Below, piece by piece: positions 18,001 through 51,515 of a stretch of 64,000 nucleotides of DNA. The notes below the pieces were generated by a model, which saw only the letters and a list, made by a program, of their open reading frames with translations, searched no databases and was not told the DNA's origin. The DNA comes from Candidatus Omnitrophota bacterium (GTDB lineage: Bacteria; Omnitrophota; Gorgyraeia; Zapsychrales; JAKLDJ01), in NCBI GenBank assembly GCA_022703585.1, contig JAKLDJ010000001.1, forward strand, positions 374,891 to 438,890, read 5' to 3'. Each line of letters begins with the position of its first letter. The first letter of the stretch is position 1. Position numbers and translations under genes: made by a program.

Positions 18001-21000
18001 CTTGGGGAAGCTTTGTTCGCTGACGGGTTTTCCGGCAAGTTCGAAAATCGGAAGGGCTATTTTCTCGCGCAGATCCCTTACCATTTTCTTATCCGTCCGG
18101 CGTCCGTCTTCTTTGGCTAAATTCTCAAATTGAGCTATTAAATTTGAAATTTCTTTTTGTGCAGCCCTTATCCTGGCTGCCCGCGGCGAAGGTTCTGCCA
18201 TCGAGGGCGCTTTCAGAATAAACTGCCAGGCAGCCCTGGGAGAATAATGCCTGCCATGGCTTGCCAACTTTTCGATAACCGGCAGGGAAAGATTTTCCAT
18301 CCTAAAGGCCGGCATGTCAAAGGCGGCAAGAATTCCTGCGGCATCCATATTTCCCTTCAAGACTTCTTGCTCTAAAACAGATTTGGTTTCGGCGGCATAA
18401 TCAGGTACGGTAGCCGCTATCCAGGCAAGGGCTTTGGATACTCCCGGTTTATTGACATGATTCTTTAATACGGCAGTAGCTATCCGGGCAAGGGCCTGCG
18501 CCACTCCCGGCTTATCAAGCTCATTGGTTATTTGGACAAGGGCCCAGGGCGCTGCCGGTTGATCGATATGGCTCTTTAATACGGAATAAAGCTGTTTGGT
18601 AAACTGGGGTGTCATATCCCGGGCGGTCATAACAAAAGCCTGGGGCTTGCCCTTTTTCTTAGGTAACGCTCCGACGAGAGCTTCTGCGGCCTCCATGTTC
18701 CCTTTGACAGCTTCTTGTTTCAAAATAGATTTGGTTTCATCGGCATAATCAGGCACGACAGTGGCCATCCAGGCAAGAGCCTGAAGAACTCCCGGCCAGT
18801 CAATATTTTTCTTCAGCATAGAATAAACTTGTTTAGTAAAATACGGCGGCATATCCGTAATTGTCCTGGCAAGGGCACCGGCGGCATGCTTGTTAATAGC
18901 TATCTGACTCTCTAGCGCGGAAATAATCCGGTCGGTAATCTTCGGATTGCCACGAACCATAGCCACGAGGGCATCCGGTGTATAAATATTGTGCGGATTA
19001 TCTCTCGCGATCTCATCAAGCGTCGTAATGGCTTGCTCTGTGAACTCCGGATTCACTTTTGAGAAATCAACTAATGCCCGAGAAGTACGATACCCCGCGT
19101 TATTTTTGGCGCTCTCAATCAAGGCCGTTGCTACTTGAGGAGTTAAGCCGGGATTTGTCAACGATATCGTCCAAAGTTCCTGCATGGTCTGGGTAAAATC
19201 GGCATCGTAACTATTATCGTCACCGCTATCGGACAACATACCCTGAAGCTCTCGAATTCTATCATCGGTAACGGGCCTCGCCTGAGCCGGCTGACCGGGC
19301 ATTGGTAACGGTCGGATGCTCTTTATATTTTCAAGAGGGAAACCATAAGCTAAAGCATTATACCTGGTGTCCAGGCTAATTTTATCCCTGCCTACGACGG
19401 CCGTTTTACCATCAATAGATACTATCGTAGTTCCGGGTTCTAGCCGTGCGAGTTGTTCAGACGTAAGAAGAAGTACATCTCTACGGATGCGGGCTCCGCC
19501 GTTTAACAGAGATTCAATATTAACTGCCAAGTGCTGTTGGGGTTCTGCCTGGGCCAGCAGGCTGGTACCGGCGACTTTCGTTGTCGACGGTATCGGGCTG
19601 CGGTCGGCTTTCAGGGCAACGTCGCGATTATTATCAGCGGTCAGGTTGGTGTCGGAAACTTCCTGAAGCTTTAATTCTGCCATCGGCGCGGTGGCCATTG
19701 CCTGCACGCTGACAGGCTTTGCCATCTCGGACGTACGAACCATTTTAGAACCGGCTGCCGCTTCCATCACTTTGACGGCCGGTGCTGCGGCGGCCGACTC
19801 TATCGGGCCGGAACCAAGAAGCATTCCGCTTTGGGGTGTGTTTCTCCTGGAAAGTACTGCACGAGCTATGCGTGCGACGGCAGGCCTCGACATCACCGCA
19901 GAACTCGGGGCAAAACCAGCTCTTGTCCACCATGTCCAGTGATTCAAAAGTAAGTCGCCATTGTTCCGAATGGCCATGAACTGAGCGTTGGCTATGCGCC
20001 AAATCTCATCTTCGCTAAGTCCAGCCTTCTTAAGTTGAGGCTCTAAAGCATGTTTCACTCGGTCAGGATGAAGGGCTTTTAAATAATCCCGGACCCGTGT
20101 CTTTACTTGCGCTTGAGACAAGGCAATGGCCGGCCCTCGCGGGTCATAAATTCCGAAATAGTCGAGGATATACGGATGGAACTTCTTGTGGGTAAATGCA
20201 AACACGTTCGACAACCCATGGTCTTTGATGGCTGAAGACAATAAACCGGTACCCGTGCTCTTACGACGCAACTCCGATACTTTTATTTCCCCTTTCTTCA
20301 ATAAAAGAGCATACAGGACCCCGCTAACAAACTTTCGGTCACGCAGATATGTTTTAAGAATATCCGGCGGAACCTTTAATGCAGCCTCTAATTCTTTGAG
20401 CGTTGGGGTATCGGGATGGTCCACCAGATACGAGGTCAAGGCGCTATTAAGCGGTTGGCCTGTCCGTTTCTTGAAATCCGCCTCTGTACGAACTTGTTTG
20501 AGGAAAAGTCTGCGGTTAGCGTCCTCATTGAACACTTCGAAATACTTGCTGATTGTTGACTGACTAACGCCTTGGTTCTTCGCTATCTGCGTCTGGATGC
20601 CATCACCTTGCTTAATCCATTGCGCCATCTTATAATGGCCGGGATAATCAAACGACGGTTTATGCAACTGCCCACGGGCGCGGTCAAATTCTGCCTGACG
20701 CTGCCGCGGATCGCCGTCGATATACCGCTTTATATATCGTCTGGCTGCGGTTTCGCTAACGCCTCGGGCCTTGGCAATTTCTGCGGTACTCGCACGAGTT
20801 GAAGCAATCAGTCCGCTCATGATGCTATCGCCGGGATAACGGTCACCCTTCAAGCCAACTTCTTGTTGTCGCGCCTTTGATGCCGTAGCAACCAGAGCGG
20901 CGTATTTTCCGGTAGGATCACCGCCATTGTTGCGCAAATTTCTAACCCAGTCTACGGCCGTCGAGTAACTTACATCCGCCTCAGCGGCAAGAACGCGCAA

Positions 21001-24000
21001 ATCTCCATCGACCCTGTCTAAGGACGCACGCAGCCATTCATCGCCGCCATATTTCTTGTTTGCCGGTTCTCGCTGATTGGTGCGGTCAGCCTTTAAGGCA
21101 ATGTCGCCTGCTAACGCCGCGCTCGCCGCCAAATCACCGCCAGGCAACCGGCTTTCGCCCTTTAATAATCCACCACTTTCTAATAAACCGTCGCCGGCTA
21201 AGGATGGGACACTGTCAGCCAAAGGTGCTTCTTGTTCCAAGGCATAAAGATCGCGGCGGGTTTGGTCGGCCCTTAGAGCTTGTTCCTTCATCTGGCCCGG
21301 AACATCCTGGCCAAGGTTGCCTCTAGCCATCGGCGGCAATAACAATCCGGGAACAAAAGGAACGCTGCCGGGGAAGGATTGCTGCATCGGCGCCGGTAAG
21401 GCACCCCCGAGATTAGATGTTTCTGCCGGAATATTGGCCTGGCCTATTGCCGGAGCCGAGGGCAGGGCAAAAGTTTCTACATCAACTCTGGCTACTTCCG
21501 CGATACGCCGGGCATTTTCATCGGACGGCAATAAGTCACCTTTCCCGAAGAGAACAACGCCGCCGGAGAGAATAGTTTTAACGTCTTCACCTTTTAGTTC
21601 TTCCAGTTTGACATTACCGCTATCATCTAAAGAAACCCGCGAGAAGATATTGATCTCTCGTTGGATCGGACCTTGTTCTGTCTGGACATCGGTAAAACCT
21701 TTTTTTGCAATAAAGACATTGCGGTCATATCTTTTCTGGATACGTTCGCGGGCCGCCTGTCTTAAATCCGTATCGCGGTCGACGGGAACAAGTTGAACCG
21801 CCGGTAAGCTCGCGAGAATTGTCCGCATATCGCGCTCTATGCGAACATTTTCGGAATGGGTTCTTTTCGTATTCGCACGGCTGATGGCTTCGTGCAAGAT
21901 GGCACTGGCCATTCTTGCCTCGTACGATGCCTGGGCGAGGAGGGGTTGGCCTACCGCCTCAAAATGGGTTTTGGCATTGGCGGCTGTACGTGTGATATAG
22001 ATGTTGTCCAGATTCTTCCCTGCGCCGCCCGCATGGGCTCCCATGAGCGTATCTTCCGCTTCCATCTGATACATAAAGCGGGCCAATTCGACAGGAGTCA
22101 ACTTCTCCTGACGGTCTTGAGCTGAAAGGCTTTGCATGGCCTGCTCGCTGACAAGATTGCGGCGTAAAAGCGCCTCGGTTCTCTCAAGGATAGCGTCCTG
22201 GTCCAGCTCAGAGAGGAAGAAGATGTGCCCTCCCTTATTAGCCGGGTCAATCTGCATCTGGATGATCCTGGCTGCTTCAAGCGCTTCCTGCCTTAATTGT
22301 ACGGACTCCTGGTCATCAAGCCCTTCTAAGGCGTCAGCAACTCTGTAAGCCATTTCCAGGTCCGCTTTGGCAGCCTGCAATTCTTCAAAACCGGTTTGTC
22401 CTGCCTTAATATCCGTAGTCGCCTTTACTGAGCGGCCGGTGGTGTTGACCTCCTGGCGAATAATGCCGTTCTCGACAATCCTGCTGAAGATTTCGTCAAA
22501 TCTCCGGCTGGGGATTTCCATGGCTTTCGCAAAAGCTTCCCGGCCTACGGTAACGGAAACAATTTCTTGGCTGGCACTGCCGCCGGGCAAACCTAATCCC
22601 TTTAACAAATCGCCCCGGCCTTCGATAGTGTATTGAACAGGATCACCGACTTCTTTGGTGGCATCCGTAATCTGATAAGTTTGCTCAACGATTTTTATAT
22701 CGTCGCTAAATCCTGTAAGAAAAGGCGCGGTAAACTGATGCGTGGCCGAATCAACCGGCACCAGGGTTCCGGCATAATGAACAGCCTTGACTTTGGCCGG
22801 ATCGGCATTGCCAACATCAGCAATACTGACGACATAGCCATGCTCAGTTATTCTATCGCCTGTTTTTACGCCCAAGAGATCCTGCTCTTGTATGCCCTGA
22901 GGAAGTTCGCCGATTTCGCGGTGCAACAGACTGTGAGTTCCTGCTGTCGTATCGACGCTGTACACTTCCCGGACAGGAATCGATATTTGCGAATCATTTT
23001 CATGCGTAACGATTGCCACGCTGCCCTGCAATGAAAACCGGCTGTTGTCCTTTATGGCAGCCGTGACAAATCCGCCTTCTTGCAAAGGAACCGCGATAGC
23101 CACGGGGTTTTTATCGTTATCTTTATTATAAATAAATCCGAATTGGGGAATGAGCCCTAAGGGAACAGATCCGTTACTAGGAACGAACATCTGATTGGGT
23201 CCGAGTTGGATACCGGCACCGGGATTCTGAAGTTCGGAAGAAGGTAGCGTGCCCGGGATGACGACAAAAAACGGATTTTCACTTCTATAACTTTTTATTT
23301 CAGGGCCATTGGCGCCGTTGATTGCGGTTGTTACGATAACCTTCGGCGGCGCTCGGGAGGCTACGAGTCCCTGATCTGCGGCCACCACGGGTTTAACAAC
23401 CTCCGCAGTAACAACGCGCTCGACGAGCATCTGGCCTTCCCGGAAACCGGGAGAATACGTCGGCACCATATCTTTAGATAATCTGGCATTAACCGCCTGT
23501 TCAAATTCTTTCGGGGTTTGAGCTTCCTGGACAGATATTCCTTTAGATAAATCTCCGGACTCAGCAGTTAAGGTAATGCGGATATCCTGCTCGCCTCGCA
23601 TAATGCTTTCAACTTCTGCCCGAGTCCTGGGACTTAATTCCCTAAGTTGTTCCGGGTGCATGCGGAAATGTTCTCGGATAACTCTATTGGCCGAATTAAC
23701 GGTTTCCTCGATCGCTGATTCTATAGTTTTCTTGGCTTCTTTAGCCGGCTCAGCAAGACTGCTATGGCGAAGGGCGTGATTCGATTGCGCAATCTTATCT
23801 CTAATCTGTTGAAGTGCGCCCCGTTCCGCATCCGTTGCCGCATCGGCTTCCCATCTTTCTTGACGCATAATTCCTTGTCTTTGGCCGTACTCGAATGTGG
23901 CTTGAGCGGTTGCAGTCCGATCGAAGCTGCGCTGAACCGGGCCCTCCATGTGCTCAATATACTTTGCGGGATCCGAGAAATTAACAACATCCAACGCGAT

Positions 24001-27000
24001 AATTTTTCTGGGAATAAGTTCGGGGTGCGCATAATCAGCTTTGGCCCCTTGCTCCCGAATAGGCGCTCTACCTCTGATTAAAGCTTGGCTGGCAAGTTTT
24101 CCGCGTGTAAATTCATTGGTAATAACAATTAAGGTGTCTTTGGGATGCGTTTTAAGGCCCAACATGTCAACGGTATCGCCCATGGCGCGCGGTTGGCTTA
24201 AAAGAACGGTCCATTTTGTATCGGGGTTCTGCATTCCGAGATCAAACTCTTCCTGAGTCAGCGGCCTTTTATTGGATTCCGTAACAGGCTTCGAAGGGTC
24301 GCGCAATATAAATCTTTCGCTTCCGCTAGGCCCTTCTAAGGCACCCAAGACAACCATGTCCGTCCCCTTGGATACAGCGTATCGACGGGCGGCATCCTGC
24401 ACTTCAAGGGCAGTGTGCCCTTCTCGACCGGCGGCATCAACAAAAACCGCTCTTCCGCCAACAGCCATTTCGCTGGCGGTTTCCTGAAATCCCGAATTCA
24501 AAGAAATTGCCTTTCCGTCTCTTGACCTTAAGGCTGTATCGCGACCGACATCAAATCCGGGAACCTCTCGTATGCCGGCCATCCTGCTTTCCGGAACTAA
24601 GAGCTCACCGCCGCGTAATGCTAATTCTGCTTGCCCGCTAAGGTCGCTTAAATCATTACCGGTCGCGTCTATTCTTCTTGTGGTGAAACCGCGTTCGCTA
24701 AATTTCGACCAGAAATCTTCAACCCGGACTCGATCGACAGAAGTGCCGACAAAGATCGGCCCCTGCCTGCTAACGCGTATACCATTTTCTCTCGCAATGA
24801 TACGGGTTATGGCATCCTGGACCGCGGCTTTATACGGATCCGCCATAACCACGGCCGGAGAAGCCGCGCCGTCAAGGTCTGTGGTCAGAACTCTGTCACC
24901 CTGCAAATGACCGGTCGGCTTTGCCGCTTCTTCTACCGCGGATACAAAACGGGCGAATTCAGCCTGTTTCTCTCCGCGTGCCCTGGCTTCAGTTTCTACC
25001 CCCAACTTGCCCAGGACCTGATCCACTAATTGAGGGCTGGCCGATGCCGTTCCATCTTCTCCATAAATAATCTTGCCTTCTTTTCTAGCTGTCCAGGCAA
25101 GCTCTGCCGCTTCATAGACTCCTTTGGGACTGGCTATTTCCTGTTGATTCCCGCCCCGTTGCATAGGCACCTGATAGGGTTTAAACTCGGCATCATATTG
25201 CCAGGCAATTCCTTTGCTCTTGGCGTACAATGCGTCCCAAATTGCGTCTGATTCGCTTAAACGAAACGCTTCAGCTTGTTTCGCAGTCAACATCAAAACA
25301 TCGGTCCTGGCAATCAAGTCGAGCTTGTCTGCTTCCGTTAAATCACTGTTCCAACGCTCGACTACAGCTTCGCCTTCCAACATTTTCTTGATTTCGGGCA
25401 TGCTTCTGTCTATGGCCCCTGCGTTATCTATAACAAAGGCCATGCCGCCTTCGCTAACGGCCTGTTTTCCAACCAAGGCAACACCCAACGTACTCTTGGA
25501 ACCGCCTTTAGCAATGTTTGCTAAGACTCTCGTGGTACTACGAGCGCGTTCGATAGCTCTTGTTAATAACTGCAATCCTTCCTTTTGACCTATATCTTTT
25601 GCGTCGGGAGAGCCGTAACCTTTTTTCAAAAACTTGGGTATGTCAGGATGAAAACCTGCGCCCTGCACGCTGAGATCTTCCCCTCCGCTCGTCATCAATT
25701 CCGCTACCTTCGCTGCCGACGGGCCGTCGCTGCCGATGACAGGTCTCGCCTTGCTGTCGACACGGGCTAAACGGTCTTCACTGCGACGCTCGCGGATGCG
25801 CTCGGAAACTCTGTCCGAAGCCTTGCGGCCAAGCTCTCTCAAGCCTCTGGCTGCGCCGGCGACTGTTCGCCCTAATTCACCTAATGTCTCTGCGTCCAAA
25901 GGTACCCCGGAATAAAGAGTGACGTCGCCGGAATTACGCCGAACTTTGGGTTTAGCCATCGGCGATTCGGTTGTCGACCGTGTCGCAGGTTTGGCCAAAC
26001 GGCTATCGCCTTCGCCGGATAATCCGCGGTTTCTATTCTTTGCCCCTAAAAATATCCCGAGTCCCAACAGACCGGTTAAGACAGGCAGGCTTGCATCACT
26101 AAGAGGACTTCCGGGTAACGGGGCGGGCGCAGCCGGGGCCTTGGGAGTATCTTGTACCGTAGCAGGTAGCGGAGATGATGCTAAAGTCACAGCCTCTACT
26201 ACCGCGCTTGCTGGCTTTTGAGCGGGAGTTGCAGCGATAGCCTCCGTGGGTTGAGCTGTTTTCCTGGTAGCCGCATCCGCTTTGAAATTACTCGCGATGG
26301 TCCGCATGGCCTCCTGACGCGCTCCGGGAGAATTCCATTTTCGGGCGGTTTCAATCATATCTTCGGTGATGCCGGCCGGAATATTATTCTTAGCCCTGAA
26401 TGCATCAAAACTACCGCCCAAGAAACTATTAGCATGATCAAAGGCCATTCTTAGGCCAAGTGCTTTGCCATAATCAGAATCTTTGCCTTCCAGTTCGCCA
26501 ATCTTTTCTCCTAAGTGATAGAGTGTGGCCATGATTAATTCATTGCTCAGGTCTCCTCTATGATCAGCATTAATGGCAAAATATAAATCCTTTCCGTCCC
26601 GAGCAACCCTCACATGTTCATCCGGATTCGGGCTTTTAAACCACCCCGCAAACCAGGTAGAATCTTTATACTGATCCAATTCCTTATCCCAGCCTAATGC
26701 GGTTTTGACTTTATAGTCTAAGTATAATGTTCTATTGGAAAGTGTTGCATCGTAACTTGCCCCGCTACTGTCAGGCAGTAACAGTGACAACTGCTCTATG
26801 GCTGATCTTGAAATATTACGCTCAACGCGGTCAATCCACATATTGCGATTTAAATCGACCGATACCCCGCCATCAGCAGGTGAAATAACGTACCGGGCAT
26901 AATCACTCGGCATGTTGCGGTCTGCCCGTGCTCCTATTTGGGCCCAATTTTCATGCCGGGACATACCCACCACAGCTTGTTTGAAATATTCGGCATTAAG

Positions 27001-30000
27001 GTACGTATCACCAGGCCTGTTCACGCTGACGTATTGCACATCCGTGCCCCACTTTTCAAACATGTCAGAACGAAATGCATCCGTAAAACAAGCAAAGTTG
27101 AAACATACTTTTTCATTTGTCTCGCTTGGTGCTAAAGCAACGCTTGGATCCTGTAAGGCATCGGAGGCCGAGTGGCCGCTATAACCGATAATATTAATAC
27201 TATCTTCTCCGGCCGCCCGATAAATACCTCCCTCAGGTAAACCTTCTTTGCGTTCCAAAGTATGGAAGTAAAATCTAAACGGCTGGTCGTTAATCGCTCC
27301 CGCGATCACCTGAGTGCCGCCGTTGTTGCTTACGCGCTGCAGTCCGATCTCACGCAGTGCGTCTGCAAAAATTCTCGCTTTGAATCCTTCTTGGAAAGTA
27401 AGGCTGCCTCTGATAACACCTTGGGGATTTGTTGCCGGGTCAAGCCACGCGTCATAAGGCAGATTATCCGGATTAAGTTTCGATAATTCTTGCTGCTTTT
27501 GGCTTCGGGAATTCTCAAATTGATCCAGGGTACGAGCATAAAGTTCTGTTTGTTCCGGCGAGATCATCGGGGCGGCCGGCGTTTCGGACGCCAGTGCTTT
27601 TCCAGTATCCGGGCTTTGAACCACAAATTCTGTGGTCGGCCGCGAGGAAAGTTGTTCCGGGCCGCGGGAATTCGCGCGCAGATTCGTGTCGGACATGAGT
27701 AAAGCGCTCGACGTCAATCCGATCGTTAAAGCGATCGTAGCCGCTTTGCTCGCGGCCGAGCTTCTTAATTTATCCATCGCCCGGCTTACAAAATCTCTTG
27801 TTTGTGCCGGCGCTGGCTTAGGAGATTTCACTAATTGAAGCGGCGCGGGGGCCGGGGCTTCAGGTGCCGCGGCCGGTGTTACGGGTTCGGCTAATACGGG
27901 TGTTGCCGGAGCTTCAGAAACTCCAGACACCTCAGCTAATGCCGGCGTCACAGCTCTCGACGCTCGACGCTGGGATAAAATCTCCATACGCTGATCGCGG
28001 CTGCGATTTGCTAAAGAGCTATCTCCCATTTCTGTTGCCAGGCGCTGGGCTGTTCTAAATGACTGGCTGGCAGAAGATAACTCGCCTGCTGCTCTTTGCG
28101 ATTCCCCTAATCTAAAATGATCCTGGGCGGTTAAAGTTGGTTGCGCGAGTTCGGGTGCTACTGTTTCAGCAGAACCGGCTTTAGCCACAAGCGGTACTGC
28201 ATTTTGTAATGATATACTTTCTCCTCTTTGAAGAGCAGCAACGTATTGATGTAAGAATTGAGCATCAGGAAGAAGGAAATTATTGAGTATTTGATCGCCA
28301 AGCATTCCACTGACTATTCTGACAATTTCGCCTGGAGTTGCATTTGGTTTATTCTTTACCACTCCTTTTATAATAAAATCAATATGGCTTAAATCTTTTG
28401 CCGGAATATGTTCTTGAAATGCGGACCTCAATAATCCTAATTCCCTTGTGGTGGGCGTAGAAAATTCTACGGTTTCAGCCGGCCTGGAAAGTTCTGTCCC
28501 GATTGCCATGGTGTCAGCGGGTCTGGCTAAATCGGATGCGGCCGGAACTTCGGCTGCAGGCCGTGCCGCAGGCTTGGCTAATTCGGATACTGCCGGTGCT
28601 TCGACACCGGGCAAATTAAATAAGACATCACCCGTTTGGGAATCAACAATCTGCATCGCGGGGCGAGATACGGGTGAAGATTCAGATGCGCGAACTGTAG
28701 ACATGGCCGGGGCTTCAGTCGCCCCCTCTTTTTCCGCCCTTTGATAACTTTCCCGGGCCATTCGGGACATTTCTGCTAGTGCCGATTGAGTTAGCCCTTG
28801 AAGATTTTCTCTGGACCGAACTCCTTCTAATCCGTTGAGGCCTTCCTGGGCAGTCGCGATATCTCCAAGGAGCCTACCTTGATGAGATTCTAAAATAGGT
28901 TGTTCGCCGGTAACACGGGCTTGGGTTAAAGCCATGTCGGCATAGGCATCCTGGGCAGCTCGGTCAGATTTTGCGAGTGCATCGGCGGCACGGGTTTCGG
29001 CACGGACAGCCTGATGAGTACCTTGATTCCTGGTGGTGGCATCCGTTGCCCGGGCAGAGGCCCTGGCGGCAACAGCTTGTCTGCGGGAGAGTGTTTGGTC
29101 AGCGCTGGTGCTGGCTTTTTGAGTTCTGGCTAATTCAGCGGCATTGGTTGCTAAGGCAGATTCAACACTGCCTAAGGTATCCTGACCAGCTTGAAGATCC
29201 TGAGTTAAAGAAGCACGTTCGGCATCTAAAGATTCCTGAGGACGGGCCACTTGAGATAAATAATCCGCGGCCTCGGCTAATCGTCTTTGAGCATCTCTTG
29301 TTGACGGTAAATTTCCTGCTTCTGCTACTGTCGCTTTCGCTAATTCCAATGCCTGCGCGCGTGCCTGTTCGGCTAATCCTTGATAAGCCTCTCTTGATCT
29401 TACGCCATCTAATGCCCTTAAGCCTTGTTGGGCAGTTGCGATATCGCCTAAGAGCCTGGCCCTTTGGGCTTCCAGGACAGATTGTTCGCCGGTAACACGG
29501 GCTTGGGTTAAAGCCATATCTGCATAGGCATCCTGGGCGGCTCGGTCAGATTTTGCGAGTGCATCGGCGGCACGGGTTTCGGCACGGACAGCCTGATGAG
29601 TACCTTGATTCCTGGTTGCGGCATCGGTTGCCCGGACAGAAGCCCTGTCGGCAACAGCTTGTCTGCGGGATAATGTCTGGTCAGCGCTGGTGCTGATTCT
29701 TTGAGTTCTGGCTAATTCAGCGGCATTGGTTGCTAAGGCAGATTCAACACTGCCTAAGGTATCCTGACCAGCTTGAAGATCCTGAGTTAAAGAAGCACGT
29801 TCGGCATCTAAAGATTCCTGAGGACGGGCAGTCGGAGATAAAAGATCTGCTGACTCGGATAAATGTCTATAGGCCTCTAATGTTGACGGTAATCTTCCTG
29901 CCTCTGCGTCCCTTACTGTCGCCTCGGCTAATTGTAATGCCTGAGCGCGCGCATCGGCAGCTGCTTGCTGATAATGTTCTCTTGATCTTACGCCGTCTAG

Positions 30001-33000
30001 TGCTCTTAAGCCTTGCTGGGCAGTTGCGATATCGCCTAAGAGTCTGGCTTTCTGGGATTCCAGAACAGGTTGTTCGCCGGTAACACGGGCTTGGGTTAAA
30101 GCCATGTCGGCATAGGCATCCTGGGCGGCTTGGTCAGATTTTGCGAGTGCATCGGCGGCACGGGTTTCAGCACGAACAGCCTGATGAGTGCCTTGATTTC
30201 TGGTTGTAGCATCCGCTGCCCGGGCAGAGGCTCTGTCGGCAACGGCTTGTCTGCGGGATAATGTCTGGTCAGCGCTGGTGCTGGCTCTTTGAGTTCTGGC
30301 TAATTCAGCGGCATTGGTTGCTAAGGCAGTTTCAACACTGCCTAAGGTATGCTGGGCGGCTTCGAGATCCTGGGTTAAGGAAACACGCTCAGCGGCTAAA
30401 GATTCTTGGGGACGGGCAGTTTCGGATAAGGACGTATTAATTCTTTCAAGAATATTATTCGCTGTAATAAGTGTGCTGCGACGAGCAACTTCTGCGCTCG
30501 GCGATGCCGCTGGCTGGCTAAGTTCGCTAACTGTCGCCTCGGCTAATGCTAACGTCTGCGCACGCGCATCGGCAGCTGCTTGCTGATAATGTTCTCTTGA
30601 TCTTACGCCGTCTATTGCTCTTAAGCCTTGCTGGGCAGTTGCGATATCGCCTAAGAGCCTGGCCCTTTGGGCTTCCAGGACAGATTGTTCGCCGGTAACA
30701 CGGGCTCCAGTCAACGCCATGTCGGCATAGGCATCCTGGGCGGCTCGGTCAGATTTTGCGAGTGCATCGGCGGCACGGGTTTCAGCACGAACAGCCTGAT
30801 GAGTACCTTGATTCCTGGTGGTAGCATCCGCTGCCCGGGCAGAGGCCCTGTCGGCAACGGCTTGTCTGCGGGAGAGTGTTTGGTCGGCGCTGGTGCTGAT
30901 TTTTTGAGCTCTAGCTAATTCAGCGGCATTGGTTGCTAAGGCAGATTCAACACTGCCTAAGGTATGCTGGGCGGCTTCGAGATCCTGGGTTAAGGAAACA
31001 CGCTCAGCGGCTAAAGATTCTTGGGGACGGGCGGTTTCGGATAAGAGGGTGTTGACATTATCGATTAAATTGGTGGCTTGGAGTCGAACTTTACGAAGGG
31101 CGGAAATTCTTTCTGCTATTTCCGCTGAAGGCGGCGCCCTTGTTTCAGATGAGCCGAGAGATGATGCTTCCTGGGGTATCGCTCCTTCCGCAGGCGTTAC
31201 CCTTTCCGCGGAAGGTGATGGGGCCGGCGTTGGAATTGCTCTAAGAGCCTGCTCACCGGCCAGCGCTAATCCCGCGGCCCTTGCAAGATTATGCCCGGCA
31301 GCGGCTAAATCACCGGCTTGCGCTCTCTGTCCCGCGCGGGCAAGGGAAGTTTTGGTTAAAGCCTCGATCCTGTCTGCTCTGGCGGTCGGGTCACCACCGG
31401 TTGTCGGACTATCAATATCAGTCCGCAGACGGTCACCGCTATTGCCTGAATCCGGGCGAGAATCAATCCTCTTTTCCACCCCGCCCATACCCCCGGCATT
31501 TGGTAATAAAAGAACTGATCGCCAAAGGGCGCGATCCCCGGCTTTTGTTTTAAGTTGATTCGCCATTGCTTCCGGTATATCTTCTACCTCTATGCCTTGT
31601 TTGGCGGCATAACTCCTACTTAAAACCTTGTACTCCGCCGCAGTTAACAGATCATTTAAACCAAGGAACGCCGCCAAACTGTCGGCCTTGGCAATTTGTT
31701 TTCCGAACGTCCGATGTACAAATGATATGTACTCACCCGTTTTAGCTGTTTTTCCAATCAAATCAGCCGGAGAGAAAGAAAAGAAACCTTGGCCTTCCCT
31801 CTTTTTATCAATACCTTTCTTAACCCCTCTACCTAATAACGAAGCCCAACCAAGTATCCCTTTCTCTCCTGCCGCAAGCCTCCCGGCCGGTGCGATTGCC
31901 TGGGGCATGGTGACACCAAGCACAGGGCCCAAGAAAGGACCGCTTTCAAAACCTCCGGCAATAGAACCTAAAACTGTTTGGCCGACAAAAAATTCTGCTT
32001 TTCTTCGGAGCAAATCATCCCCTTCATATTGCGGCAAATTACCGGTCAATAAATTCTTGATACCGTTAAAACCAAGTTTTGAGCCTTCCCATATTAACCC
32101 AGCCTCGGCAAATCCGATAGCGCCGCTTGCCATAGACGAGGTTAGCGTAAACGGCTTCATCTCTCCCAAGTTTTTTACGCCGCCTGCCAGATATCCCTTA
32201 ACCGAGCCTTTTCCCAACAAGATCGCGCTAAGAGCAATACCACTTACAAGTAACAAACCGCCTTCGGCAGAAAAAGGTGATATTAATTTCTTTTCTTTAT
32301 AACTCCCATAAGCCCAGGCGGCCGCACCCCCAGCTGTCCACCGACCAGCTACGTTTCTTACGGTAGTAAAGGTTTTTTGATTTGCTACATTGTTTGTCAT
32401 TTGATCAAGATACTTGCCTACAAAATGCGGATTCTTGGGATTGGGATCAGTATTAAGCTTTGTTATCCCTCTAAATGCCAAAAGCCCTGCAGAAATCTCG
32501 GCCCCTGCTATCGCTCCGCCCTTACCGCGTGAAAGAGCGTGTCCCCAAGTTCTTTCATTCGTTGGGTCCCCAAGTTCGTTGGCTGCTTGAAAAACCCCTA
32601 GAGAAATTGCAGAAACACCCACGCTACCAAAAGCCTGTTTGACAGATAAGCTTGACGCAAATATAGGACGAAGGCCAAACATGAAACCCGTATAAACTGC
32701 CGCTGCTTTAATGGCGCCTTTTAAGAAAGCCGCGCTATAGTCGGGACGCAGATTAACTCCTCCTGGCCCTGCAGTCCGCGACTTAATCTTTTCGGCTATC
32801 CCACCACCAACAGAACCTACGACGATTGCTCCGCCTAAACCTATGAGATGCGGGCGTATACCTTTCATCGAACCCATAAATCCCTTAGCATATAGATTTG
32901 CGGTGTTCATCGGTAAGCTTGCCATTCTACCGAGAGTTAAGATCCCCAAGGACGATGTCACAGCGCGAATATTGTCTTCAAACGATAGGGGCTTACCGGT

Positions 33001-36000
33001 AACTCCCAACGAAATCGCGTTGCCCGCCGCAAGAGAGAACACCGATGTCTTAACAGCAGCCCTGGTAAAAGACGCCCCGGGAACTTCCGCTGCGTTTACC
33101 CTCGCGAGAGCTTTTGCAGCAGCCAAGGTAATCCGCTGGTTGGCGTTTAGTTGTTGGGCGGCGGTTGCAGCCAATTCTGCCTCTGCTGTTTTTGCAGCAG
33201 CTCTTGCAGCAACTTGCGCGGCTTCTCGGGCGGCTACTTCAGTCCCTTCCACCGCTGCTGTTTTCGCAACGGCTTCTGCAGCTTCTGTCCCCGCAGCCTT
33301 TGCGCCAGCTTTGACCGCTGCCGACACCCCTAATTTCACGCCCTCTTTCACCCCAAAACCTACGAGCTTAAACACAGGAATTAGCGAAATGGCATCTACT
33401 GTACCGCTAAAATTCTCCATCCTCCCGGAAAACTTGGCCATAATCGCTTCGTTCTTTATAAACGAGTCATATCTTAAAGGCCCGCCGAAGCCGACAACAT
33501 TTCCGTAAGAATCCGTTTCTTCTCTGGCTAAAAATCCCAACCCCTTATGAATAACATCCTGGTCAAGGACTATCCCCGTGTCTCTACCTCCATTGAACCC
33601 CAAGGCAAAATAGTCGCCCGAACGATAGCTTCCATCAATGCCGTCAAAGAGGCCGGAGCTGACCTTTTGGCCACTTTGATCTTCTATCGCAATATCGCCG
33701 CCGGAATACACATCCGCAGAAAACGCAAGGTCTCCTTGCGGGCCTAAACCGATTTTGGCAAGGCCGGGCGCTACGGCCTTACCAAGTTTAGTCAATATAT
33801 TCTTTTCTTCTCCGCCCAATCGTATGGTTCCGAGAAACTGCGATTTGTCAACCCGTCTCCACAAACCGTTGCTCTTGCCGTCCTCCCCTACTTCCTGGAG
33901 CATGACATCATTATCGCCCCTGCCGCCGTCCGGTTTTCCCATATTAAATTTTCCGGCGGCAAAAAGCGCCCGGTCAAAGTATCCCTGAGGCGCTTCTTGT
34001 TCTTCTGTCCTATCCGCCCAATGTTCTTTGGGCACATAGCCTTCAGCGCCATCGGCTGAACGAACCCTGACATATTCGGACATTTTGGCTTTAACGCCAT
34101 CAAGGAACTCTTTTGCTTCGGGAGTCGTGGGCATAACGGCAAATTGGCCGTTACTATCGGGACGGAAGAAAATTAATCCTCCTTCTTCTCTTATAGCCTG
34201 CCCGGCATCCTGGACACCCGTGCCGAAAACCGTGGTCTTCGCATCACCTAAGGTCGAAACAAACTGATGTTGTTTGGCGGCAGGATTAAAGCCGTACCAA
34301 GTCAGCGCCGTAGTCGAGCCGTTCCCCAAGGTAACCCTTATGCGTTTGGCAGAAACATCTCCCTTGTTAACCCTGGTCACTTGGGGCGTAAAGTCCGAGT
34401 CGCTATCCTCTTGACCGGCAGTATTATCGGCAGGACCTATCTCACTGCCTGTCGCTACATGTGTCTTGTGATAAACCGCGCCCAGCGTTCTGTAGGAAGA
34501 TGGCAAATTGACCGCCCCTTCACTAAATATAAACGCGAGCCGGCCGTCTTTGCTTGTCCAACCTTCGCCGTAACCGCCTTGAGTAGAAGCCGTATCGCGA
34601 TTATTCCGGTCACCGGTCAATATTGTTCCGCCGTGGACAAAAAACGGCTGTTCGCCGGGATTAAGCCTTGACGGGACAACGCCATTGAATTCAAAATCTT
34701 GCGTAAATTCGACGGTCCCGGAAAAACTAAGCGGGGTTCCGATTTCGCCGTGGGTCCAGGTGGCATGGTTGCGTGCGGCTTCGTAGGCGCCGGGACCTAT
34801 TTCCACATCAAAGTCAACAGGTTCAGACAGTGCGCTAGCGGTCGTGATGCCGGTCCTTAAGAGGGCAGGGTTTACCGAGAGACTGCTTGGCTGTGCGACT
34901 GCGAAAGGAATTTCAGGTCTTTCTGCAGTAACTATAACTTCGGGCTGCATTTGGGGTTGCAATAACCCGGCGTTATCGGCAATCCCAAATCCACCATCAA
35001 GGAAAGATCTGCCCGCGCCGGTTGCGTTGTTTCTCCAGGCCATACCGCGTATAACATCAAGGCCGAATAATTTCCGTCGGCCTTGATCGTCAACCCACAC
35101 ACCCGCTGAGGTCAGCTGGGCGGCGTCGCTGTCCGTGCGATAGAGCCCAATCCTGATTTGCCCAGAATTATCGCCATAGTCGGAATTAAGAGGAATTGTG
35201 TTTCCGCTGGCCGGGTCAAATCTTCCGTCAGCATTTTCGCCGCCATCGGCACCTCTTCCAAGTTCATAATAGCTGTCAGGGCCCCCGCCTGCAGCGTTAA
35301 AAGTACCGTTTAATACCATGACCGTACCGCCTTTTCCGTCGGAAACAGGAACACCCAGGGCGTAAACTCCTCTTGACTCCCGCTTACCATCTCTCAGCTC
35401 ACCTTTTATCCTATCAAGCGCATCTCTTTCGTTTTGGGGTGCATTGGGGCCAAGCTGGCGATCAAGTATCTCTCTTTTTGCACTCTCACCGAACGAAGCA
35501 ACCGCCCATTGATCCGGGTTTATGCCACTTCCTACCGGCGGAGGATTGACCACAGCGGTTTCACTGGGAGGTTCAACAGGCATTTTCTCGCCCCCGGAAT
35601 TTCCCGGGAGAACATTGACTAAGTCCCGGCTATCTGTACCATCGGGCTTGGTACCGGCAGCAATGTGGCTTTTAGCAAAACTGCCATCAGCAGCCGGAAT
35701 AAATTCTCCGGCATAAACATCAATAGCGCCGTTAGCGCCTGTTGCCGTCGCCCTCACTTCGGCCGTGGCGCCGTTGAGATTCAGGTCGGAATAATTGGAC
35801 GTCCGGTCTTGGAATAACCCTTTGGTGGCGACAATCGTTAATGTTTTTTCCTGGTTGATGACTTGGATGCTTTCTGTTCCGTCCGGAGCTACGACGATTT
35901 GCGTTTTGGACGTATCAACAAAATGAGGATTTGTATATTTATAAACATACTGTTGTTTGCCGTCTAAGAAATAACCGAAACGGTGAAAAGGAATGCTGTC

Positions 36001-39000
36001 TTTATTCAAGGTTAGCTGGGAATCCGTCCCGTCATGTACATACATGCCCTGGCCCCGGATATAATCCACGCCGCCGTTCGCAAAAATCCCCAATGAACGC
36101 GTTGGCGTGTTGACAAGAGTGAGTTGCGGGCTTTGTTTGTCCCCGGAATAATAATAGCGGGTGTTATCCGTGATCGGGTTCATGCTCGCAACCCCTGTGC
36201 CCACCGCCGACAACAGGTCTACCGAATAAGGTGCGTATTGTTCGCCGGCAGCCTCAACTTCCCCTGTGTCAATAAGATTCCCTTGTTGGTCAAATATTGG
36301 TTTCTCTTCGGATTTATCTTGGGTTCCATCAGCTTTCGCGAAAAACCAGGGTTGCGCCTGGCCCGTAGCCAAATTCATCCTGTATGTAGGCGCCCCGGAA
36401 ATAGTGACAACCCCTGAAACCTGCGGATTTTTATTTTCTCCTGCGGCTGACGCCGGGGCATTCTGATCCGCATCTTGAGTAATAACATCCAGAGGAAATC
36501 TGCTGATACCCGCAAGGCGCACCACAGGCCCGTTCTGGTCCCAGGCGAGTTTGTCCACTTTTTCTGTCGATAACATCCTCAAGGAACCGGGCACTTCCTG
36601 GCCATTCGCATCAACTGAATATTCTTTGGCTGAATTCGGAACATAGTGCAATTCGCCCCGGGAGTTTGCGGCCTTCGGATTTTCGATCTCGGTAGAAGAG
36701 TCGTATAAATCAATGGGCTTGCCGTCTCCCCGGACAATATCGGATTGAGTAAAACCGTCTAACCTGACTGAAGCTATGTAGGTCGACCCGCCGGACAATG
36801 AAGGAACTTCCGTAGGAGAATTTTCCCCTTCAAGAAATAGCGGACCTATGAATGACTCCCCGCCCGGCAACGGAGAAACTTCTCCGTAGGGTTGATGCTC
36901 ACTGGCAGGCCCTTCAGAGCCTGATTCTTTGGCCATGCTCTCATTAATGATTCTTGCCTGTTCTTTCGTAAGTTCCGCCGCTCTAACCATGGCCTCAAAA
37001 GCACGCCAGTTGACACTCATGGGTTTTGAACCATCTCCTTTTGGATAATAGCTGATACCCTGATCGTCAACGACAGCAATAGCGTCTTGAATTCCCCTAC
37101 CCGTATCGTTGGGAGCATAACCCAGACCGTTGTACCTGAACGTTCCCTTGTCTTCGAAAACTTTAAAATCACGGATAATTAAGCGGGGTGTTTTTCCCTG
37201 AATAGATTCTTCTGCAGTAAATATCTCGGCACCGCTGGGATTTGCAAGCGAGCCGAAAAGAAGTGTTCTATCAGCCACAGTCCCGTCACGGCCGATAACT
37301 TCTTTTGCTTTCTTTTCTCCGAATATTCTTATTGCGTTTTGAGTCTGCGTTTCTCTGGCCTGCAATTCTTCTTTTGTCTTTCCGGCTTGTTCACCACCGG
37401 CGCTATATCCCGCAACCGGAGCTATACCCGGAGTAGTGGATGAGATATTTGTATCGCCTGTCTCCGGGTTCGGGCTTTCGAGGGACGTTTCTGTCGTCAT
37501 GCCCGTCCCGACGTTCGCGTTCGATTGCGCTGCCGCATTCGTTATGGCATTGGCCGTTGTCTGAGAAGACGCGCCGGGTTCCGAAGCTGATGATGCCATG
37601 GTATTTGACGCAAGCGCCGTAGATGCATTGGTCGTTGCCGTTGAGGCATTGCCCCCCGCAGGCGGCATGCTGGGTGCGGATGAAATATTTCTGTTTACTG
37701 CTTCTCCCTTTTCATATTGAATAAACTGGCCTCTTCCGTAGAGAAGAAAAGTGTACTCATTCCCGCTATTCACATCGGTGGCTGTGTACCCTCCGTCAAC
37801 CACACCTTGGGCTGATTTTGTTTTGTCACCCTGGCGGAATTCCGAGTAGAGGCTGCCCCTTTTATTTCCCGCGCCTCCCAAGGCAGCCATGGCAAGATAG
37901 GATTTACTGGAATCGAGAGCGGCTTGAGTCGGCGCATACGCCGCAAGGGCTGCCATCAGGCCTGCTTTTGAGTAACCACCACTTGACTCATACGCCTCAT
38001 AAGCTTCCTGGAGTCCTTGCGCTTGCAATGCATCCATCTGCGCTTGCTGTTCCTGGTTAAGAGCCGTACTGCCCTTAACCAGAGTCCCCATCGCATCTAC
38101 CCCATCGGCAATGCGCCAAATACTGGCGCCGAATGCGGTCCTATCACCATTAACCATGACCGTCTGCCTGCTGTCGTTGGTGGGTGTTCCGAAATATTCA
38201 ACATCCCAGACGGTGGTGGCACCCCTTGATTTCCATCCCTGCCGGTAAAACAGCGTGGTCGGCGTCGCATCCTTGGCGAGGAGTTTGCCCTTGGCGTTGA
38301 CATCCATGGCCTGAGCAACAACCTGCCAACCAAGATTGACATTTTCCGAGCCCCCGGGGACATTCGCCAATCCGGAGATTAATTCATTGGTCAGATCAAC
38401 TGCCCTGTCGCTGCCCAGAGCATGCTTTGTAACTTCCGCTTCTTGCTCAGGGGTTAAACTGGCACCCACGGTTCTGCGGACCTTCGCGGGCAGGAAAACC
38501 AACCCGACCCCGCCGACATTAGCAAGATTCCACTCCACGGCCTCTTCAGTTTTTCCTGTTAAATTGGCCACGTCCTGATCCAGTGCTGCCTGGACATTAG
38601 CGACTGCCGACCCTTCTCCTTTGGCTACTTTTAAGAAGCGCATTAATTCGGCGTTGCCCTGATAAGAATCACTCTTGCCCTTTTCTGCCACTTTGGACAA
38701 ACTTAAATCGTTAAAAATCGCGATTTCTCCGTTAGATACGATCGTCTCACCGGTAACCCGATAGGTGCTGATAAATTTATCCGCAATGAATTCGTCGGTT
38801 GTTTCGTTTCTTCCGTGCTGGCCGGAAATATTCTGAGCTACTCCATTCTTGAATTTGACTTGTGAATTCCACTGCCAATGAGTAATATTGCCCTTGGAAT
38901 CTGTGAGGGGGTTGCGTGTTTTACTATCAGTCTCGGGAGATTTTTTGTAACTGAATCTCGCCATCAAAGGACTTTTCTCGTTTTCAAACCCGCCGGCAAC

Positions 39001-42000
39001 AGTCATGGTTCTGCCTTTACTCATGACATCATTGAATCTCTGGCTGAACAAACCGGTCAATTCTGTATTTTCTCCTGAAGGGCTGACAACGCCCGCATCC
39101 AGAGACAGCCTATCCGGCCCCACCAAAGGAACTGCCGAACCGTCCTGGTTTTTTAACATGAGCGTTTCCCTAAAGATTCCCAAGTGTGCCTGGTCAGCCT
39201 CGGAAAGATCTTCAGGAAGGTTAATGATAGTTTGGCCCGGGTCAATGAAGCTCTGCGCTCCCGCAATCTTATCGGTGGCGTTGCCGTCTTTGTCAATTAA
39301 TCCCTCTTTTTTCGCCTGGGCCATTGAAAGCATCTTTGTTTCGCCGTCAGCATAGGTTACCGTAACCTTATCCGTGTCATGCGGCATGCTCATCCTGATG
39401 GTATTAAGATTCCTTCCGTTTTTAAGAAATCTGGGATTGGCCAAATGCCAGGTCTTATTACCGTTGTGAAAATCCTGTTCGTAAGCAAAAACGATGTTCT
39501 TTGACGGGCCTATCCGCCCGGGTTTTGCTTTGCCGTCGGCATCGATCAGACCTTGTTCCCGGGCAAAGGCTTCAGCAACTCTAACGCTGGACCCGTCCTG
39601 ATAGGTGACGTTGACATTGCCAAGCATCGCGATGCTGCGCACGCCTTGAGCAGCGTAGATAATTTCTCCGGCATCATTGCTCTGGGCGGCGATTTTGCCG
39701 TTTGCGTCAATGTATCCTTTGTCTTTTGCCTCGTCCCATGACATCGTTTGTTTAGTGCCATCGTTGAGAACAACCTCAAAAACATTACGCGGGTCCACGG
39801 TAATGTCCCTGATGCCCTTGCTCTCTATCCTCGCCATACGCCGAGGGGTAAAGCCTGTCCATTCGGCAATTCCAAGAACAACCGCGGATTTCTTGTAGGC
39901 CAAACGCTCCTGAAATTCCCTTTTGCCTTCGGGACTATCAAGGGCGATTCCCTTATCTGTTATGGCTTTTTCTATGGCGGCTACGTTGCTGTCTTTATTC
40001 GCGACCAAAGAACCGATCCCGTACATGGCCGGCGTAAAGAAGGTAGCCTCGAGAAACGCGGTAGCGTTATTGATGGTCCCGGCGTTTAAACTGGAGAAGA
40101 AATACTGGAGCTGATTAGCGGCGGGATTAATACCTGAGAGTATCTGGCGATTGTAGCTTTCTTTAAGTTCTTCGTCGTTCAGCCGCTCATCGCTGGGCTT
40201 TTCGTTGTTGATCTCTTTCATGTCTTCCCATAGCGCTTTTGAGCGGATAACAAATTCCGGGGTAATCCCGCTCATCTCTGCCAAGTGAGCTGTATAGCTG
40301 TTAAAGTCATTGATTCCCGACCGGCCGCCGATTCCCGGAGTGCCGTATTGTCCGAATTTGTTAGGGGCTGTGCCGCCGACAGTATAATAATTGTAAGCCG
40401 CAAGCTGAATCCGGTTGGTCGAAACGCTGATGACAGTTCCCCAAAATCCCGTATCGCTTGCCAGAGTTGTATCAGCCTGCTTTTCTGTCTTTTCTTTATC
40501 GTCAGCAACACCGCTAAAATCCTGGCTGGGGAATATAAATTTGTCGACAAGTGCCGTTCCCAATCCTGTCGCAAGAGACGTAGTAAGAAGGGCAAGGGTG
40601 CGCATCTCCATCGGCGATAGGCCGGTTTTATTTCTCGTTCCGTTATTCCAGGCCCCTTTCATGTTATGCTGTTCTATGGAATCAAGGAGCGCGCCTACCC
40701 CGGCAGGAAGAGCGCTCATAAGTACGGCGGAAGTAATTCGCTTAAAATTCCCCCAGAACCCTGTTCGGGTATCCGCTTCGTCTAACTGCAAGTCTTTCGA
40801 ATCTCCCTTACCGATGGTGTACCGGGCCGCTAACGACCCCAAAGAGCTTCCGACCTGGCCTCCTATCTGACTTAATCCTAAAGAGAAATTGCTCTGCGGA
40901 TTAATATTGTATTTCTCATAAAGCCATTGACGCATATAGGCACTGGCGATACTGCCGGTCAAGTTTGGAATTGAAGTCACCAGCGTTTGTTTCATCGCGT
41001 CGCCAAGACCGTAAGGCGTAAATTCGTTAGTTAAGTCATCGCGCTCACCCATGTTAAACGTTTCCCGGTAATCCGTACCCAATTTACTATCGCTAAGAAC
41101 AACCAAGGGCGTCATGACGATATTCGTCCCAAAGGAAGACACGGCACCAACAACAGAATTCCGCACCATGGGATTCTTTATCTTCTTGAATATTCCCCAT
41201 TTCTCGACCCACTGGGCCATTTTAAGCTTGATATATCCCGTGGCAAGTCCGAGGCCAAGACCTGCACCAAGACCCTTAAAGAAAGTTGCTGTGGCGCTCT
41301 GATTGGCAAGTGCATTCTGTGCAGGGGTCAAAGATTCCCCGGCAGCCTGTGCGGATCTCGCCGCCGAACGCGCCTCCATTTTTCCCCCCACATACATAGT
41401 CGCCACGCTTAGAGCCGTGCTGACAATAAAAGCGGTGCTCGGGTCCCACCCCCATTTCATGACCCCCACCTGGGACAAGGTGCCGTAGAAATTTGAGGCG
41501 GCCGAATAGACATTCATCATGCCCATAGTCCCGCCCGTCGCCAGATTAAAGGCTGTCTGTACACCTGCGCCGATCAAAAGGTCTTGGGTAGATGTGATCC
41601 CCGGCAGCTGATCGGAGCGGCTGATCCATTGCGAACCCCAGACAAAGGCCATCATCGAATCCGTCACCGCCATGGTCCGGATGGCATCATCAATGCCGGG
41701 GGCCAGGACAAAGCCGCTTAATTCTTCGGCAAATTTTTCTTTTGGTGTTGACAGCGCCCGGCCGATATCGGTGTAGTAGACATTGTCATCGTCCATGCCG
41801 GTAACGGTGACAAAATGTTCGGATTTAAAATTGGCGATAAAAGGTGTTTTAAGTTTGAGGATTTCTTCCGGAGAAAGCTTGAGCGTGGTAAAGTCCAGCC
41901 CGTAACTTTTGACCACTTTGTTGATGGCATACAGCGATGTCTTTAACTTCGGTTCTCCGGGCTGGATAATATTGCTTAAAATGTCCACCAGCAAAGTCGC

Positions 42001-44720: not shown

Positions 44721-44739
44721 AGCGAAACAGTAGGGGTCA

Positions 44740-45597: not shown

Positions 45598-45642
45598 AGG
45601 ATTTATTCTCTAACCAAAATTACCTTTAACAAAAATACCCCA

Positions 45643-49298: not shown

Positions 49299-49361
49299 TC
49301 TTTCTCCTTGAATCTTGTTACGTCAAATTTGCCCTAACCCTTTATTTTAAAAACCTTAAAC

Positions 49362-49625
49362 CTACCATTTGTTGAAAACCAAGTTTAAAGGGGTCGGTTT
49401 GGAAAAATTCGTTCTCAGCTGTCTTAACGGGCCTTCGCCCTCATTCTCCCAATTCTCGTTGATACCCATATTCAGAGTAGTTTCGTGGGCGACCTGACGC
49501 TCGGATAGGCTTAACCCCACCCAGCGAAATGCCATGATGCACCCGTAAAAAATCAGAAGCAGGACAACAAAAGCAAACGTGAATTCGATGATAACCTGCG
49601 CGTCATGTTGTTTAGAGTTTTTCAT
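49362..49625 (-). CDS. tadE: TadE-like minor pseudopilin (87 aa).
   Basis: MKNSKQHDAQVIIEFTFAFVVLLLIFYGCIMAFRWVGLSLSERQVAHE... shows a TadE-like N-terminal hydrophobic helix after a charged leader. Confidence 0.6.
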   Translation of the reverse strand: MKNSKQHDAQVIIEFTFAFVVLLLIFYGCIMAFRWVGLSLSERQVAHETTLNMGINENWENEGEGPLRQLRTNFSKPTPLNLVFNKW

Positions 49626-49684
49626 TTTAGCTGTCAGCTTTCAGCTGTCAGCTTTCAGCTGCTGAGAGCTGATAGCTGGTGGCT

Positions 49685-51494: not shown

Positions 51495-51515
51495 TCCTAT
51501 CCCTCTTAAGTTTCT

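Follow-up and report, generated by a model that had tools for sequence, protein, structure and literature searches.

What does a four-fold tandem repeat deep inside a giant bacterial gene encode, how did it arise, and is its copy number real? These questions are raised by a 64,000-nucleotide stretch of the genome of a Candidatus Omnitrophota bacterium (assembly GCA_022703585.1, contig JAKLDJ010000001.1, positions 374,891 to 438,890; the whole stretch is hereafter called the window). An open reading frame (ORF) scan of the window revealed a minus-strand frame without stop codons from position 1 to 42597, corresponding to 14,199 codons. An initial annotation, made from the sequence alone, had noted four near-identical repeats of 194-205 codons within this giant gene, while not stating that the ORF lies on the minus strand. 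From our analyses, we consider it probable that the array is a lineage-specific module of about 590 bp, present in four in-frame copies that each encode a helical hairpin, which has grown by duplication and gene conversion and which serves as a rigid structural or interaction element. The coordinates of the array and of the other features are given in Table 1.

Table 1. Coordinates of the repeat array, its host gene and other features in the window
Feature	Position in window	Strand	Details
Giant gene, 5' part	1..42558	minus	14,186 codons from the ATG at 42558; continues past the window start
Predicted N-terminal transmembrane anchor	42367..42429	minus	aa 57-77; Kyte-Doolittle 19-residue window score 1.96
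Peptidase C39-like domain	41704..41949	minus	Pfam PF03412, E=1e-7, 32.3 bits against a cut-off of 22; aa 217-298
Whole array, four units phased on the Pro-rich linker	28735..31134	minus	aa 3822-4621 in window-frame numbering; ~3809-4608 from the ATG
Predicted hairpin unit 1	30520..31134	minus	205 codons: linker, helix D, helix A, NQG turn, helices B and C
Predicted hairpin unit 2	29905..30519	minus	205 codons; unit modelled by AlphaFold2
Predicted hairpin unit 3	29317..29904	minus	196 codons
Predicted hairpin unit 4	28735..29316	minus	194 codons; most diverged, chiefly from core codon ~117 on
U1, RPQESL phasing	30415-31029	minus	205 codons (615 bp)
U2, RPQESL phasing	29827-30414	minus	196 codons (588 bp)
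U3, RPQESL phasing	29245-29826	minus	194 codons (582 bp)
U4, RPQESL phasing	28663-29244	minus	194 codons (582 bp)
Asn-Gln-Gly (NQG) turn of unit 1	30805..30813	minus	invariant in 4/4 units
Longest exact inter-unit repeat	29700-29829 = 29118-29247		130 nt
Exact inter-unit repeat	30946-31032 = 30331-30417		87 nt
Tad/Flp pilus (type II secretion-like) cluster	43722..63842	minus	co-directional, upstream of the giant gene; Pfam matches and called genes

The repeat search found four copies between positions 28739 and 30863, with start-to-start distances of 582, 588 and 615 nt, and no other direct repeats of 60 nt or more occur in the 42.6-kb ORF. A profile hidden Markov model (HMM) of the unit recovered exactly four full copies in the 14,199 amino acids, with i-Evalues of 1e-107 to 1e-111, and no others. 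The coordinates, copy number and sizes given in the initial annotation were thus right, and the self-comparison that it proposed shows the expected periodicity. It was equally correct that all unit lengths are multiples of three and that the reading frame is kept; the units are arranged head to tail. Tandem Repeats Finder (TRF) was run with a maximum period of 500 and hence did not report the array, which was instead detected by the direct-repeat search and by BLAST and HMM self-comparison. Besides the phasing on the Pro-rich linker, the units can be phased on the peptide RPQESL, found at aa 3857, 4062, 4258 and 4452 in window-frame numbering. U1 is preceded by a unit tail of 35 residues. Plus-strand ORFs within the array were rejected as short antisense ORFs without support.

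The nucleotide identity of about 90% estimated initially applies to the first 146 codons of the unit in RPQESL phasing (the core), which are 86-94% identical between units, but not to whole units, which share 72-85% of their nucleotides and 67-84% of their amino acids. In the last ~50 codons (the tail) the identity is 22-77%, with indels, and these indels are the reason why the unit lengths differ. The bias towards Ala, Gln and Arg that had been noted is evident from the composition of the array (Ala 22.6%, Arg 10.5%, Leu 10.1% and Gln 9.1%) in comparison with the rest of the giant protein (Ala 11.3%, Arg 5.9%, Leu 8.5% and Gln 4.1%). In contrast to the rest of the protein, the array is almost devoid of Lys and contains no Phe, Trp or Cys. 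Pro/Ser/Gly-rich segments flank it. Just after the array, in a Pro/Ala-rich linker (window ~28470-28620, aa ~4660-4710), three copies of the motif [ST][ED]L[AS][KR]PA occur ~14-15 residues apart. Self-comparison of the protein yielded a single further internal repeat, which is weak, at aa 7881-8090 (window 18328-18957). It consists of two adjoining segments of ~100 aa that are 37-41% identical (E ~1e-17 to 1e-18), and looks like an old, diverged duplication.

The substitution pattern differs between core and tail. In the core, the Nei-Gojobori ratio of nonsynonymous to synonymous substitutions (dN/dS) is 0.13-0.27 at a dS of 0.15-0.43, and we therefore conclude that the core is under purifying selection and that the copies are not brand new. 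In the tail, dS ranges from 0.5 to saturated and dN/dS is 0.4-0.9. The parsimony-informative sites of the core support conflicting unit genealogies in successive blocks: in codons 2-22 all 15 sites split U1U2|U3U4, in codons 43-52 four sites split U1U4|U2U3 and two sites, both in codon 44, split U1U3|U2U4, and in codons 116-122 six sites split U1U3|U2U4. This mosaic of incompatible blocks, together with the exact tracts listed in Table 1, indicates gene conversion or unequal exchange among the units, restricted to the core, as is characteristic of concerted evolution; the core dS is far below that of the tail. Of the proposal that the array reflects recent duplication or ongoing concerted evolution, the conversion is therefore borne out for the core, in tracts of up to 130 nt, but a very recent origin is not, in view of the core dS.

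The structure of the encoded protein was predicted with AlphaFold2 in two ways. When aa 3834-4451 (618 aa) were modelled as a single sequence, the model was nearly all helical according to DSSP, with a predicted local distance difference test score (pLDDT) of 57, and helix D of one unit continued into helix A of the next as a single helix of 101 residues. Foldseek matches of this low-confidence model were generic long-helix proteins only and were discarded. When a single unit was re-phased to the Pro-rich linker and modelled with an alignment of the four paralogous units, the mean pLDDT was 86.5 and the predicted template-modelling (TM) score 0.61, with helices at residues 7-34, 38-107 and 111-204, of which both long ones have a pLDDT of 95-97. 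At Asn-Gln-Gly the chain turns back, so that arms of near-equal length (28 + 70 and 94 residues) lie side by side. Each unit is thus predicted to be an antiparallel two-helix coiled-coil hairpin with arms of ~95-100 residues, and in this prediction it has the two helices of similar length and the tight turn that define the class. Since the rise of a helix is ~0.15 nm per residue, arms of this length correspond to a hairpin ~14 nm long. The turn lies within the tract TRNQGTHQAVRAETRAADALAKSD, which is invariant in the protein sequence of the four units and has few synonymous third-position differences. Around the hairpin tip (core codons 76-105) nucleotide identity is at its highest, 95-100%, and it declines toward the base.

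A search of the unit model against the PDB with Foldseek gave a best E-value of 0.002, and all top matches were long antiparallel coiled-coil hairpins. The best match was the N-terminal domain of RipA (6ewy; TM 0.63, root-mean-square deviation 4.5 Å over 201 columns); others included Smc arm fragments, cytoplasmic domains of the methyl-accepting chemotaxis protein (MCP) Tsr and other MCPs, the receptor-binding domains of colicins E3 and E9, and AhlB/SmhB. The coiled-coil analysis called for in the initial annotation gave one heptad register, with hydrophobic residues or Ala at 14 of 20 a/d positions in helix A and 13 of 19 in helix B. The units are accordingly predicted to be helical and coiled-coil-like, with moderate support from the heptads, as had been proposed, but they are not predicted to form a single long stalk, as the hairpins return to their base.

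The host gene probably starts at the ATG that gene callers also chose on other assemblies (locus position 13040). Its full product is 85,803 aa long in both ERZ761563 NODE_2 (1.17 Mb) and GCA_035453785.1 (1.61 Mb), and by these calls it exceeds the 30,000 codons in a single ORF that mark the C39-type giant proteins of Omnitrophota. West-Roberts et al. 2023 (10.1101/2023.11.21.568195) found, as their longest ORF, one of 257,412 bp (85,804 aa) in an Omnitrophota genome from wastewater, and described N-terminal C39 domains and adjoining type II secretion-like loci for such giant genes. The host gene agrees with C39-type giant proteins (West-Roberts et al. 2023; the PF03412 architecture cluster of bioRxiv 10.64898/2026.06.07.730766) in all features that were checked, namely length, an N-terminal transmembrane segment followed by a C39 domain, a type II secretion-like (Tad) locus upstream on the same strand (43.7-63 kb), origin, and long stretches free of Pfam matches. 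Its length and habitat equal those of the published wastewater ORF. As the length is identical and the architecture matches, we infer that the window contains the 5' end of that ORF. The host gene is then the longest prokaryotic ORF on record, and assignable domains are nearly absent from its first 14,000 residues. For residues 1-887, 19 homologues were found, with 36-54% identity and PF03412 in every one; a source name is attached to nine, which derive from eight Candidatus Omnitrophota/Omnitrophica metagenome-assembled genomes and one Elusimicrobia. Neighbour proteins identical to those of the window carry the NCBI name Candidatus Omnitrophota bacterium. No matches to HEAT, TPR or glycosyltransferase families (the 'Archaeovorin' content) were obtained in the first 14,199 aa, the other ~71,600 aa lying outside the window.

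Taken together, the following scenario is proposed. Tandem in-frame duplication of a ~590-bp segment, ~3,800 codons into the giant gene, would have produced the array. Within each copy, helices D and A would form one arm (~98 residues), followed by the NQG turn and a return arm of helices B and C (~94 residues), and short Pro/Ser-rich linkers would join the hairpins at their bases. Because each unit ends where it began, the array would consist of four hairpins tethered at their bases rather than of a stalk four times as long. The distal part of 146 codons would be held by purifying selection and partly homogenized by gene conversion, and the basal ~50 codons and the linker would drift freely. 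The result may be four fingers of ~14 nm, or a helical bundle packed side by side, placed between flexible linkers of a membrane-anchored giant protein for which a role in contact between cells has been suggested; an end-to-end stalk is not envisaged. The module is most likely a rigid structural or interaction element, possibly a projecting one, as the array is under selection, predicted to be helical, four-fold and flanked by Pro/Ser/Gly-rich segments in a membrane-anchored protein encoded beside a Tad system. The conservation of the tip and distal arms is compatible with a binding surface, and fits equally well with conversion tracts centred there. The array represents a clean and datable example of giant-gene growth via tandem duplication with gene conversion, and the module is among the few pieces of 'dark' giant-protein sequence with a confident structural model. 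It is otherwise ordinary: internal repeats are the norm in this gene class, and in-frame helical tandem repeats are common in giant surface proteins.

Several observations weigh against this interpretation. The hairpin packing derives from an AlphaFold2 model whose input alignment comprised just the four paralogues, and a monomer prediction by construction favours intramolecular pairing. The model in the context of several units is poor, at the pLDDT given above, and gives no reliable arrangement of the units relative to one another. None of the Foldseek matches of the unit model in the PDB reached E<=0.001. The periodicity of 3.5 residues is moderate rather than strong in comparison with shuffled sequences (z 1.7-2.6), which also qualifies the outcome of the coiled-coil analysis, and conservation at the a/d positions does not significantly exceed that elsewhere (5 of 39 variable, against 21 of 98; p=0.34). 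Furthermore, weak hydrophobic segments at aa 482, 3250, 3448 and 5499 make the hydropathy ambiguous on the topology of aa 80-11,900, and the array may lie on either side of the membrane. Finally, the five loci that could be retrieved represent a single strain.

These loci, obtained by a TadB lookup, come from different assemblies and all match the window without a single mismatch over 20,858 nt (100% identity), the compared stretch ending short of the array. Two of them break off inside it, as computed from the contig extents and the partial product lengths. The Joint Genome Institute (JGI) contig Ga0116155_10000306 (46,354 nt, partial product of 4,284 aa) ends at ~29707, 122 nt into the 130-nt exact repeat, and the Logan contig SRR5007146_6983 (partial product of 3,852 aa) ends at ~31003, 29 nt into the 87-nt exact repeat. 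We take these offsets to fit the branching of de Bruijn graphs at k ~123 (JGI) and k=31 (Logan). A contig with a k141 name (ERZ27257456) spans the array and runs on for 233 kb, and the two Mb-scale contigs also span it with the same total product length. The array has thus been shown to interrupt assemblies, as anticipated, and explains why the giant gene is truncated near aa 3,850 and near aa 4,285 in short-read assemblies; as a practical rule, crossing it requires k above 130 or long reads. The accompanying suggestion that the true copy number may be larger found no support: there is no sign of more than four copies in the three assemblies that span the array, and collapsed copies are unlikely because the units are sufficiently distinct from each other. 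That the array as a whole is an assembly artefact, either through collapse of a number above four or through spurious duplication by the assembler, is very unlikely. The breaks in two of five contigs would agree with it, as would the statement of West-Roberts et al. 2023 (10.1101/2023.11.21.568195) that giant genes are broken up at repeat-rich regions when assembled from short reads. However, the units show 6-14% divergence in the core, and their tails, which contain indels, are unique; no exact repeat is as long as the k=141 of a contig that spans the array, and two Mb-scale contigs yield the identical 85,803-aa product. The frame is also intact, the core is under purifying selection, and the breaks lie where graphs of smaller k are expected to branch at true repeats.

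Among explanations that accept the array as real, the extended stalk envisaged initially would require that the helices pair in parallel with the same region in further molecules of the protein or with adjacent units, each unit then contributing ~25-30 nm and the copy number setting the length. The almost wholly helical region with its heptad seam, the continuous D-A helix across units in the 618-aa model and the in-frame unit lengths, which would let the copy number tune the length, are in line with this. Nevertheless, the helix-breaking NQG is invariant and lies exactly in the middle of every unit between equal arms, the confident single-unit model is a hairpin with antiparallel hairpins as its structural neighbours, and Pro-rich breaks separate the units, which makes an extended stalk unlikely. 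The same hairpins could instead be ligand- or receptor-binding fingers of the colicin E3/E9 type, whose conserved polar tip and distal arms form the working surface and whose four copies bind prey or host multivalently. Such a function would account for the peak of conservation around the tip, where TRNQGTHQAVRAETRAADALAKSD is invariant, and for its fall toward the base; the presence of colicin receptor-binding domains among the structural neighbours and the proposal that this gene class mediates prey adhesion (West-Roberts et al. 2023, 10.1101/2023.11.21.568195) point in the same direction. The conservation may, however, only mark the sites of gene conversion, the resemblance to the colicins is weak (TM 0.30-0.33, E about 0.02-0.06), no homologue or binding motif was found in the searches described below, and the topology is ambiguous from hydropathy, so that we regard specific binding fingers as improbable. 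By analogy with the colicins, we see a slim chance that the four hairpins are a new, lineage-specific multivalent contact device, with conserved polar tips acting as receptor-binding fingers by which the giant Tad-associated surface protein of predatory or episymbiotic Omnitrophota would seize the host; if so, in-frame gain or loss of units by recombination would tune valency between strains. At the other extreme, the array could be a largely disordered, low-complexity Ala/Gln/Arg-rich spacer whose repeats represent neutral expansion of filler. Its biased composition, the lack of a homologue, the compositional nature of the sole library match (to an unrelated repeat protein) and the low confidence of the multi-unit model would be consistent with this. 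We nonetheless consider it highly improbable, as the core dN/dS is low at a dS of up to 0.43, the single-unit model is confident and has a consistent heptad register, and there is no variation at the turn or at many polar positions.

The preferred reading, a selected hairpin module, raises the question of whether relatives occur elsewhere. Word-indexed protein searches with one unit and with aa 3300-5300 gave no match; Ala-rich words may have filled the limit of 8,000 candidates. An exhaustive HMMER search of 1.84 billion representatives with the unit profile yielded no genuine homologue. Its sole match, P0001 (4,583 aa, with 31 copies of an unrelated Ala/Glu-rich repeat), was rejected as compositional, since it aligns only to unit positions 4-44. 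Searches of the array against Pfam, NCBIfam, PDB sequences and Rfam returned nothing, or sub-threshold noise (SOXp, HTH_3 and SMC). The two most conserved peptides, ETRAADALAKSD and NQGTHQAVRAET, were converted into degenerate DNA patterns, which had zero matches in JGI metagenomes and 185,579 species genomes, and a related-locus search with aa 4700-5333 was empty. Searches that should match the giant protein of the window itself, or the JGI contig that must contain units 1-2, likewise failed to return them. As the collections evidently lack or mask the giant-gene locus, these negative results tell more against distant than against close relatives. The unit constitutes a new, orphan family at the sequence level; its predicted fold is very common, and the giant gene that contains it has already been published.

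The hairpin module is described neither in West-Roberts et al. 2023 (10.1101/2023.11.21.568195) nor in the 2026 preprint (10.64898/2026.06.07.730766). The latter, based on 176 complete Omnitrophota genomes, detected, by a fuzzy TRF criterion, tandem repeats at the nucleotide level in 86% of long genes and regards internal repetition as 'the rule' in long Omnitrophota genes. The repeats reported for Omnitrophota giants are of the HEAT, TPR, TSP3, dockerin, WD, NHL and CBM35-like types (10.1101/2023.11.21.568195; 10.64898/2026.06.07.730766). Whereas the preprint describes most repeat architecture as old and dissolved at the nucleotide level, the core of the present array retains the high identity given above, with conversion tracts. 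The predicted geometry resembles that of known antiparallel hairpins (RipA 6ewy, SMC arms 5xg2/5nnv, the chemoreceptor 1qu7 and colicins E3/E9), with a best TM of 0.5-0.63, but there is no sequence relationship to these proteins, the Foldseek E-values are non-significant, and only in the array is the hairpin repeated four times in one chain. Spectrin-type repeats are likewise tandem helical units in which the last helix may run into the first helix of the next unit. They are, however, three-helix bundles of ~106 residues that propagate a rod in one direction, whereas the units of the array comprise ~200 residues with two equal arms, the chain returning to the end from which it started. The unit was therefore not assigned to the spectrin repeats, given its 194-205 residues, its two arms and the lack of a Pfam spectrin match. 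A methyl-accepting chemotaxis signalling domain (PF00015) was rejected as well, as there was no Pfam or NCBIfam match at E<=1 and the structural resemblance is weak. An SMC/Rad50 arm was rejected because the only match was sub-threshold and compositional (TIGR02168, 13.8 bits against a cut-off of 567) and no head or hinge domains are found nearby.

Some further features of the giant protein and its surroundings were observed. A peptidase M50 (site-2 protease)-like membrane domain may be present at window ~5620-6280 (aa ~12107-12325), where the match scores 25.3 bits against a Pfam cut-off of 27.2; it is surrounded by a clear transmembrane cluster of strongly hydrophobic segments (aa 11987-12423). 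Matches below the gathering threshold to Pfam HTH_23/28/29 and DUF4347 at aa 7264-7297 and 8299-8389 (window ~20710-20810 and ~17430-17700) are probably noise.

The Tad cluster lies directly upstream of the giant gene and looks complete. Its members include a SurA/peptidyl-prolyl isomerase-like protein, RcpC/CpaB, a secretin with TonB_C, a fusion of a ParA-like domain with the TadA ATPase, a Flp pilin, TadB, TadC and several proteins without an assigned function; three large proteins of the cluster (978, 476 and 1083 aa) had no Pfam or NCBIfam match. The fusions are unusual, namely the secretin with a C-terminal TonB_C (60353-62014) and the ParA/TadZ-like domain joined to the TadA ATPase (58192-60351). 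Two small pilin-like genes at 53300-53729 on the minus strand were called on other assemblies; one encodes a Flp_Fap protein (PF04964) of 52-58 aa, and the other a protein of 64 aa with a weak match to Class_III signal. Between TadC and the ATG of the giant gene is an AT-rich gap of 1.2 kb (42559-43721; GC content 0.42, against ~0.51 elsewhere), in which some gene callers place two opposite-strand ORFs of 80 and 59 aa. This gap is possibly the promoter or regulatory region of the giant gene.

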